From Escherichia coli (GTDB lineage: Bacteria; Pseudomonadota; Gammaproteobacteria; Enterobacterales; Enterobacteriaceae): 64,000 bases of DNA. The stretch lies in NCBI RefSeq assembly GCF_001677475.2, contig NZ_CP015229.1; one strand, written 5' to 3'. The position numbers were made by a program, and so were the translations under genes. Shown piece after piece: positions 11,560-13,691 of the stretch; the stretch's first letter is position 1; the number at the start of each line of letters is the position of its first letter. The notes below the pieces were generated by a model. It saw only the letters and a program-made list of their open reading frames with translations, was not told the origin of the DNA and did not search any database.

Positions 11560-11705
11560 CTTCCTGTTATCCGAAACATATCACTGACTTTGGTGATTTC
11601 ACCGTAACTGTCTATGATTAATGAGGCGGTGGTTAACACTACCGCTTCGTTGTCTGGACAATCGTTCCTTTGTAATAGGTCCGAATCACAATGGAAGGTT
11701 CAAGA

Positions 11706-12074
11706 ATGAAATACCGCATCGCTTTAGCTGTTTCTCTTTTTGCTCTTAGTGCCGGTAGTTATGCCACTACCCTGTGTCAGGAAAAGGAGCAAAATATCCT
11801 TAAGGAGATCAGCTATGCCGAAAAACACCAAAACCAGAATCGTATTGACGGTCTGAATAAAGCCCTGAGTGAAGTCCGGGCCAACTGTTCAGATAGCCAG
11901 CTGCGTGCCGATCATCAGAAGAAAATCGCAAAGCAGAAAGATGAGGTGGCGGAACGCCAGCAAGATTTAGCCGAGGCGAAGCAAAAAGGCGATGCCGATA
12001 AGATTGCCAAACGCGAACGGAAACTGGCAGAAGTGCAGGAAGAGCTGAAAAAGCTGGAAGCGCGCGACTACTAA
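11706..12074 (+). CDS. yqjC: Periplasmic DUF1090 protein YqjC, 122 aa
   Basis: ORF 11691..12074; start at MKYRIALAVSLFALSAGSYA (signal peptide); charged coiled-coil-like C-terminus. Confidence 0.88.
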   Translation: MKYRIALAVSLFALSAGSYATTLCQEKEQNILKEISYAEKHQNQNRIDGLNKALSEVRANCSDSQLRADHQKKIAKQKDEVAERQQDLAEAKQKGDADKIAKRERKLAEVQEELKKLEARDY

Positions 12075-12111
12075 CTCACAATAGTCACTACTTACTCACC
12101 TGGAGAAAACT

Positions 12112-12417
12112 ATGTCGAAAGAACACACTACGGAACATCTGCGTGCTGAGTTGAAATCCCTTTCCGATACGCTGGAAGAGGTGCTTAGCTCATCTGGCGA
12201 GAAGTCGAAAGAAGAGTTGAGTAAGATTCGTAGCAAAGCGGAGCAGGCACTGAAACAGAGCCGTTATCGCCTGGGTGAAACCGGTGATGCCATTGCTAAA
12301 CAAACCCGTGTCGCGGCGGCGCGTGCCGATGAGTATGTGCGTGAAAACCCGTGGACGGGCGTGGGCATTGGCGCTGCAATCGGTGTAGTGCTCGGCGTTC
12401 TGCTGTCGCGTCGTTAA
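12112..12417 (+). CDS. yqjD: Ribosome-associated tail-anchored membrane protein YqjD (ElaB family), 101 aa
   Basis: MSKEHTTEHLRAELKSLSDTLEEVL... with C-terminal transmembrane segment. Confidence 0.9.
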   Translation: MSKEHTTEHLRAELKSLSDTLEEVLSSSGEKSKEELSKIRSKAEQALKQSRYRLGETGDAIAKQTRVAAARADEYVRENPWTGVGIGAAIGVVLGVLLSRR

Positions 12418-12419
12418 TT

Positions 12420-12824
12420 ATGGCGGACACTCATCACGCGCAAGGGCCCGGTAAAAGCGTTCTGGGCATCGGGCAGCGAATTGTTTCCATCATGGTTGAA
12501 ATGGTGGAAACACGTCTGCGGCTGGCGGTGGTGGAGCTGGAAGAGGAAAAAGCTAATCTCTTTCAACTTTTACTGATGCTGGGCCTGACGATGCTTTTCG
12601 CTGCATTTGGTCTTATGAGCCTGATGGTGCTAATTATTTGGGCGGTTGATCCGCAATATCGCCTGAATGCGATGATTGCCACCACCGTGGTGTTGCTGCT
12701 ACTGGCACTGATTGGCGGTATCTGGACGTTACGTAAATCGCGTAAATCCACCTTGCTGCGCCATACACGCCATGAGCTGGCAAACGATCGGCAGCTGCTC
12801 GAGGAGGAGTCCCGTGAGCAGTAA
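12420..12824 (+). CDS. yqjE: Inner membrane protein YqjE, 134 aa
   Basis: Start at MADTHHAQGPGKSVLG (ATG 12420) within ORF 12351..12824; two hydrophobic segments. Confidence 0.85.
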   Translation: MADTHHAQGPGKSVLGIGQRIVSIMVEMVETRLRLAVVELEEEKANLFQLLLMLGLTMLFAAFGLMSLMVLIIWAVDPQYRLNAMIATTVVLLLLALIGGIWTLRKSRKSTLLRHTRHELANDRQLLEEESREQ

Positions 12825-13113
12825 AGTCGAACGTGAACGACGTAAGGCGCAACTGCTTAGCCAGATCCAGCAACAACGGCTGGATCTTTCCGCCAGTCGT
12901 CGTGAATGGCTGGAGGCAACAGGCGCTTACGATCGTCGCTGGAATATGCTGCTAAGTCTGCGCTCCTGGGCGCTGGTTGGCAGTAGCGTGATGGCGATCT
13001 GGACGATTCGCCATCCTAATATGCTGGTCCGCTGGGCCAGACGCGGTTTTGGCGTATGGAGCGCCTGGCGTCTGGTTAAAACGACCCTCAAGCAGCAACA
13101 ACTTCGCGGTTAA
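12814..13113 (+). CDS. yqjK: Small protein YqjK, 99 aa (GTG start)
   Basis: VSSKVERERRKAQLLSQIQQQRLDLS...; overlaps the yqjE 3' end by 11 nt. Confidence 0.8.
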   Translation: MSSKVERERRKAQLLSQIQQQRLDLSASRREWLEATGAYDRRWNMLLSLRSWALVGSSVMAIWTIRHPNMLVRWARRGFGVWSAWRLVKTTLKQQQLRG

Positions 13114-13298
13114 CTTCCCTCTGGCCGGAGCCATTCCGGCCTTATCCCTCAAATTTTTTGAAGATTTTTGACAGTTTTCCTTGCTAACAATCATGTTTCA
13201 CCACGTTTATGATTCTCTCCATCGACAGCAACGACGCTAATACCGCGCCCTTGCACAAAAAAACAATCAGCAGCCTGAGTGGCGCAGTGGAGAGTATG

Positions 13299-13691
13299 AT
13301 GAAAAAATTAGAAGATGTTGGTGTACTGGTAGCGCGCATTTTAATGCCGATTCTGTTTATTACCGCAGGCTGGGGAAAAATTACTGGCTACGCGGGTACC
13401 CAACAATATATGGAAGCGATGGGCGTCCCGGGTTTTATGCTGCCGCTGGTGATTCTGCTTGAGTTTGGTGGTGGTCTGGCAATCCTGTTCGGTTTCCTGA
13501 CTCGCACCACAGCCCTGTTTACTGCGGGCTTTACGCTGCTGACGGCATTTTTATTTCACAGCAACTTTGCTGAAGGCGTCAACTCGCTGATGTTCATGAA
13601 AAACCTGACAATTTCTGGCGGATTCCTGCTGCTGGCAATTACCGGTCCGGGCGCGTATAGCATCGACCGCCTGCTGAATAAAAAGTGGTAA
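13299..13691 (+). CDS. yqjF: DoxX-family inner membrane protein YqjF, about 130 aa
   Basis: ORF 13209..13691; start chosen at MKKLEDVGVLVARILMPILFITAGW after a GGAG RBS; exact start uncertain. Confidence 0.8.
   Translation: MKKLEDVGVLVARILMPILFITAGWGKITGYAGTQQYMEAMGVPGFMLPLVILLEFGGGLAILFGFLTRTTALFTAGFTLLTAFLFHSNFAEGVNSLMFMKNLTISGGFLLLAITGPGAYSIDRLLNKKW

Follow-up and report, generated by a model that had tools for sequence, protein, structure and literature searches.

Positions 12112-13113 of the window, by which we mean the whole 64,000-nucleotide stretch of Escherichia coli DNA analysed here, are the yqjD-yqjE-yqjK stretch of the E. coli yqjCDEK operon, which has already been annotated and published. 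We consider it likely that the three genes start where they are annotated to start (ATG 12112, ATG 12420 and GTG 12814, respectively) and that, within this operon controlled by sigma-S and CsrA, yqjE would be translated by reinitiation after yqjD, while coupling of yqjK to yqjE would be optional. Publications or annotation already cover the genes, their starts, the operon and its regulation, the role of YqjD in ribosome hibernation and the synteny of D, E and K, and the present analysis is thus confirmation with little discovery. Two modest additions to the known picture are (i) the conservation, across a wide range of relatives, of a yqjE start that is located next to the yqjD stop and is devoid of a Shine-Dalgarno (SD) sequence, and (ii) the dual use of the codons for the LLEE/LLED tail of YqjE as ribosome-binding site of yqjK.

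All genes of the operon lie on the + strand. Its first gene, yqjC (11706-12074; DUF1090, 122 aa; PMC10746276), corresponds to the RefSeq coding sequence at 2607-2975 of strain L001 and matches Pfam PF06476 (E 4e-34). As read from the sequence and the list of open reading frames (ORFs), yqjD (101 aa) runs from ATG 12112 to TAA 12415-12417 and is preceded by the SD GGAG at 12102-12105, 6 nt 5' of the ATG. The spacer 'tt' (12418-12419) separates its stop from ATG 12420 of yqjE (134 aa; TAA 12822-12824), and yqjK (99 aa; GTG 12814 to TAA 13111-13113) shares its first 11 nt (12814-12824) with yqjE. The initial annotation had placed the yqjE start two bases beyond the yqjD stop at 12417, which holds base for base, and the GTG of yqjK 11 nt inside the 3' end of yqjE, which is likewise what the sequence, RefSeq and K-12 exhibit. 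Consistently, yqjC, yqjD, yqjE and yqjK have identical relative coordinates in the annotation of K-12 MG1655 and of two RefSeq E. coli genomes. The K-12 operon (b3097-b3100) shares genes, order, coordinates and junction geometry with the window. The two alleles differ at 17 of 1002 nt, with 15 of these differences located in yqjD and yqjE and all of the 15 being synonymous, and YqjK deviates by a single residue (A35T). Of 5426 complete E. coli genomes searched by megablast with 11600-13300, 5422 contain the locus, and the best identity over this 1.7-kb region is 99.4%, exceeded by none of them. That YqjD and YqjE are nevertheless 100% identical to their K-12 counterparts indicates strong purifying selection on both proteins. 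For wider comparison we employed 80 loci from about 20 genera of Enterobacteriaceae (81 with the window). The D-E-K gene order is kept in all 80, and the block is also present in four of seven distant loci; the tight gene packing is an ordinary, conserved trait of operons and not chance geometry.

The properties of the three proteins agree with what had been proposed for them from the window alone, that is, a tail-anchored protein, a two-helix membrane protein and a protein of 99 residues. YqjD matches DUF883 (PF05957; E 4e-13, 49.5 bits versus a cut-off of 25.4, residues 8-60) and the glycine-zipper transmembrane tail anchor DUF883_C (PF19029; E 1.4e-15, residues 72-101), and hydropathy yields a single, C-terminal hydrophobic segment (residues 80-100). 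YqjE matches PF07332, Phage_holin_3_6 (E 3.5e-21, 75.8 bits versus a cut-off of 28.4) and exhibits two hydrophobic segments (about 45-78 and 80-105), in line with a two-helix inner-membrane protein. YqjK matches PF13997 (E 4.5e-25, 88.3 bits versus a cut-off of 28.1, residues 14-86) and is weakly hydrophobic. Gene identities and the three start codons of the initial annotation are hence backed by public annotation and by conservation across species and, for YqjD and YqjE, by published N-terminal peptides. With regard to function, the K-12 YqjD protein, to which YqjD of the window is identical, was shown to bind ribosomes and to inhibit translation; it is C-tail-anchored and, in stationary phase, holds ribosomes at the inner membrane and keeps them silent (bioRxiv 10.1101/2024.08.16.608256). 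Its neighbors YqjE and YqjK are regarded as conserved small membrane proteins. Within the YqjD-ElaB-YgaM family of DUF883 hibernation factors, YqjD of the window is the archetype and differs in nothing, and yqjE-like and yqjK-like genes were reported to accompany DUF883 genes in a conserved syntenic block (bioRxiv 10.1101/2024.08.16.608256). Furthermore, overexpression of either YqjD or YqjE arrests growth, and an interaction between YqjE and YqjK has been predicted (PMC10746276).

The product name 'phage holin' of YqjE is a Pfam family label and nothing more: a functional phage holin is not supported by the PHROGs search, which returned no family at E <= 0.01 for YqjD, YqjE or YqjK, nor by the chromosomal neighbors yqjA, mzrA, yqjC, yqjD, yqjK and yqjF encountered in all loci. 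A defense-system reading of the trio is likewise unsupported, since PADLOC yields nothing except a weak resemblance of YqjD to the candidate defense protein LeoC (E 7e-5, 21 bits; YqjD residues 3-96 versus profile positions 104-201 of 207), which suggests that LeoC may contain a DUF883-like module. A sequence search of the PDB with YqjD gave one spurious helical match only.

The evidence for coupling resides at the yqjD/yqjE junction (TAA-tt-ATG, 12415-12422). Of the 81 loci, 54 have a gap of 2 nt between the yqjD stop and the yqjE ATG, 25 a gap of 1 nt and two a gap of -1 nt. The anti-SD energy ahead of yqjE is +1.1 kcal/mol in the window, with a median of +0.7 and a best value of -1.7 kcal/mol over the 80 loci, that is, an SD is absent from all of them; for yqjD, the corresponding energy is -6.4 kcal/mol in the window and in the median (80 loci). 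A representative-level search for distant YqjE relatives yielded 360 representatives at E <= 1e-3. In six distant D-E contexts with 28-56% identity, the gap ranges from -4 to +6 nt and five lack an SD before the yqjE-like gene, while the high-GC locus L090 does carry one. The SD-less, stop-adjacent yqjE start is thus retained in relatives with as little as about 30% protein identity. Classical translationally coupled pairs rely on termination-reinitiation at overlapping or adjacent stop and start codons. The genes considered here resemble such pairs in that (i) the stop and the next start are only a few nucleotides apart, (ii) the downstream start is SD-less at the D/E junction, and (iii) a 4-nt overlap, ATGA or GTGA, is the commonest form of the E/K junction across species. 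Since the SD-less yqjE start of the Enterobacteriaceae loci is always located within 2 nt of the yqjD stop, it fits termination-reinitiation coupling.

We infer that yqjE, because it has no ribosome-binding site of its own, would receive most of its ribosomes from yqjD, directly after these have terminated at the stop located 2 nt upstream, and that the output of YqjE would thereby be tied to that of YqjD. The yqjK gene could be initiated de novo via an SD located in the last codons of yqjE, and ribosomes translating yqjE might help by keeping this SD unfolded. The likely purpose of such an arrangement would be to co-produce partners in fixed proportions. Of the translational coupling of all three proteins advanced in the initial annotation, the step from yqjD to yqjE appears well supported, whereas the step from yqjE to yqjK is optional: the conserved overlap makes coupling possible, but yqjK possesses a strong SD and could initiate alone.

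The alternative with the best prospects, which we nonetheless regard as unlikely, is that yqjE is initiated independently of yqjD translation, either without an SD on the junction UUAAUUAUG, which has little structure, or from a transcript of its own that begins within yqjD, so that the 2-nt spacing would reflect genome compaction. The junction is AU-rich, and the global mapping of transcription start sites cited in PMC10746276 predicts such sites upstream of both yqjE and yqjK, which would allow for independent expression. Moreover, PMC13245402 reports 124 annotated starts that are used in spite of lacking SD-like motifs. However, its TRAINSPOTTER table, in which the proxy-SD column for yqjE is empty, lists peaks at yqjD, and none at yqjE, for INRI-seq and Ribo-RET, two approaches that report de novo initiation. 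The missing peak could simply mean that yqjE is poorly expressed in growing cells. SD absence and stop-start adjacency are conserved jointly, both in all 81 close loci and in five of the six distant ones, which is the signature expected for reinitiation after yqjD. A hairpin at the D/E junction, with the UAA in its loop and the yqjE AUG in its stem, was considered as a conserved element and rejected: its z-score is -0.3, and the covariation analysis yielded 70% of cells paired and no compensatory pairs, with 491 of 500 shuffles performing as well.

At the yqjK start, all 80 intact loci retain an initiation codon in the homologous place (GTG in 46, ATG in 33 and TTG in one), and the stop of yqjE drifts relative to this fixed point, which makes the yqjE/yqjK junction -11 nt in 12 loci, -8 in 11, -4 in 44, -1 in 10 and +2 in three. 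The start is preceded by the SD GAGGAGGAG (12801-12809), which lies within the yqjE codons for L-E-E-E and has an anti-SD energy of -11.8 kcal/mol in the window; the median is -9.3 kcal/mol, and 65 of 80 loci reach -6 kcal/mol or lower. In the window, the yqjK frame is open further upstream, back to TTG 12712, and includes ATG 12772 (12772-12774), such that proteins of 133 and 113 aa, respectively, can be read from the ORF list. It appears highly improbable that either codon serves as the start in place of GTG 12814, since (i) in K-12 MG1655 and strain L001, synonymous Leu changes in yqjE place a stop between the equivalent of ATG 12772 and the GTG, making the extended open frame a feature in which the window allele differs from K-12, (ii) a stop in the yqjK frame lies within 42 nt upstream of the start in 57 of 80 loci, (iii) an upstream in-frame start is absent from 59 of 80 loci, and (iv) the SD is placed for 12814, with none ahead of 12772. 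A YqjK N-terminal peptide was not found in the accessible part of Table S1 of PMC13245402, and the supplements of the TetRP (PMC4909307) and INRI-seq (PMC9825163) studies, as far as available, hold no entries for yqjD, yqjE or yqjK. The assignment of the yqjK start is therefore based on comparative evidence, which backs the originally proposed GTG as the probable start and argues for rejecting ATG 12772 and TTG 12712.

The conserved C-terminal tail of YqjE, L-L-E-E/D-E/D, is encoded at 12795-12813 by CTG-GAG-GAx, that is, by the very nucleotides that constitute the GGAGG SD of yqjK. Judging from this arrangement of codons, the conservation of the tail at the protein level may in part reflect the ribosome-binding site of yqjK. 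An SD-like GGAG or AGGA is located at the same spot of the YqjE tail in four of five distant loci with a small third gene. The yqjK gene of Trabulsiella odontotermitis strain 01 (L027:1880-2210) lacks 62 nt at its 5' end when compared with that of a second strain of the species (L037). This deletion removes about 21 N-terminal residues of YqjK and leaves a possible product of 77 aa starting from an ATG just past the yqjE stop; the deletion could be real or an assembly error.

Least probable of all is the use of the in-frame GTG 12351 (12351-12353) as an additional or alternative yqjE start, which would result in a protein of 157 aa with its first 23 residues encoded within yqjD in another frame. 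The ORF list does give a frame open from this codon (ATG instead of GTG in K-12-type strains), an in-frame GTG or ATG is present at -69 of yqjE in 51 of 81 loci, and some automatic gene calls for yqjE are N-terminally extended (e.g., P0001, 164 aa). However, the codon consists of the third base of a Pro codon and the TG of a Trp codon (CCG, CCA or CCC followed by TGG) in the conserved NPW (Asn-Pro-Trp) motif of YqjD, and its equivalent reads GTG in 29 loci, ATG in 20 and CTG in four, depending on the Pro codon used. A 1-nt gap, as present in 25 loci, alters the frame relation, and in most of these loci a stop occurs 15-57 nt upstream of the ATG; 19 loci have no upstream in-frame yqjE start whatsoever. 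Of the three positions of the yqjD codons in this stretch, the first has a column variability of 0.21 bits, the second of 0.006 and the third of 1.16; the 1.16 bits fall on position 1 of the extension frame, as against 0.006 bits at position 2 of the yqjD codons, so that only the yqjD frame is constrained. Correspondingly, the extension peptide is 53% conserved as compared with 91% for the C-terminus of YqjD, no SD precedes 12351, and the Pfam domain of YqjE gains nothing from the extension. The yqjE ATG, in turn, is invariant in 81 of 81 loci.

Published proteomics bears on the same point. In the available part of Table S1 of PMC13245402, the YqjE N-terminal peptides MADTHHAQGPGKSVLGIGQR and ADTHHAQGPGKSVLGIGQR, with and without the initiator Met, begin at the annotated ATG (MADTHHAQ.../ADTHHAQ...), and an extended YqjE proteoform is not listed there; the same part gives MSKEHTTEHLR and SKEHTTEHLR as N-terminal peptides of YqjD, with support from Ribo-RET and INRI (rows 712-715 for both proteins). 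The initial annotation had doubted the 12351 start and pointed to ribosome profiling or N-terminal proteomics as a means to fix the yqjE start. Its doubt is borne out by the YqjE peptides at ATG 12420, by the constraint on the yqjD frame, and by the shifted or closed frame in many species: the 12351 codon arises from the coding of yqjD, the longer frame is an artefact, and the extended reading is largely refuted.

For those working with the operon, the annotated starts of yqjE and yqjK can thus be taken as right, and the two longer ORFs as by-products of the codons of neighboring genes. Since the relatives examined share a yqjE start next to the yqjD stop and without an SD, a polar or nonsense mutation in yqjD is expected to reduce YqjE as well. 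Phenotypes credited to yqjD alone, as well as plasmids carrying yqjD without yqjE or yqjK, are to be interpreted with this in mind. It is tempting to speculate, as a possibility to which we attach little confidence, that the reinitiation start of yqjE is a ratio-setting device which keeps YqjE, and via it YqjK, at a fixed fraction of YqjD, and that the three proteins form one membrane complex in which YqjE and YqjK control the tethering of ribosomes by YqjD or their release on regrowth.

In distant relatives, the third position of the block may be occupied by a rhomboid or by an unassigned ORF of ~100 aa, and one solitary YqjE-like gene occurs. Specifically, the third gene of L090:896-2258 (GC 65%) encodes a rhomboid protease in place of YqjK and is joined to its neighbor by a 4-nt overlap, and at L088:1501-2475 a YqjE-like gene has no DUF883 gene upstream, with a CsbD+DUF883_C hybrid protein encoded 320 nt downstream. 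The homologous operon of Pseudomonas aeruginosa, PA3040-PA3042, combines a gene for a DUF883 protein with a yqjE-like gene and a third, small one, all spaced by <15 bp; both stationary phase and envelope stress induce it (PMC11302039). Compared by their published description (PMC11302039), they differ from the E. coli genes in that PA3042, unlike YqjK, has no recognised domain, and in that overexpression of PA3040/PA3041, unlike that of YqjD/YqjE, does not inhibit growth.

The yqjCDEK genes have been defined as an operon with sigma-S-dependent promoters upstream of and inside yqjC, in which CsrA represses translation of yqjC and yqjD (mBio 2023, PMC10746276); the GGA of the yqjD SD constitutes CsrA binding site BS4 in K-12 (PMC10746276). 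At the other end, a GC-rich hairpin, GGCCGGA-gccat-TCCGGCC (13123-13141, + strand), starts 10 nt past the yqjK stop, with a predicted fold of -15 kcal/mol (z -1.5) and without an adjacent T-run. The consensus terminator scan detected no operon terminator after yqjK and did not report this hairpin, which is a possible operon terminator or RNA-stabilising hairpin at the 3' end of the operon. Scans of the operon and its flanks for Rfam families and repeats found nothing relevant. A promoter-like site (13184-13213) is located after the hairpin and before yqjF, the start of which is ambiguous: the ORF list has 13209-13691 (160 aa), while RefSeq and K-12 have 13299-13691 (130 aa), and a tandem ATGATG occurs at 13296-13301, near the annotated start.

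Finally, several database entries deserve caution. Seven proteins (P0002, P0003, P0007, P0014, P0034, P0039 and P0060) are metagenome or assembly gene calls that fuse YqjD with YqjE (PF05957+PF07332) or YqjE with YqjK (PF07332+PF13997). Because the genes lie in different frames, either fusion requires an indel, and since the fused calls are mostly found on short contigs, sequencing or assembly errors are likely. Moreover, a locus deposited as 'Chryseobacterium sp. 18061' (L058, CACSKA010000008.1) carries an Enterobacteriaceae-type yqjDEK whose junction sequences hardly differ from those of 'Citrobacter sp. 18056' (L065) from the same project, which suggests that this assembly is mislabelled or contaminated.
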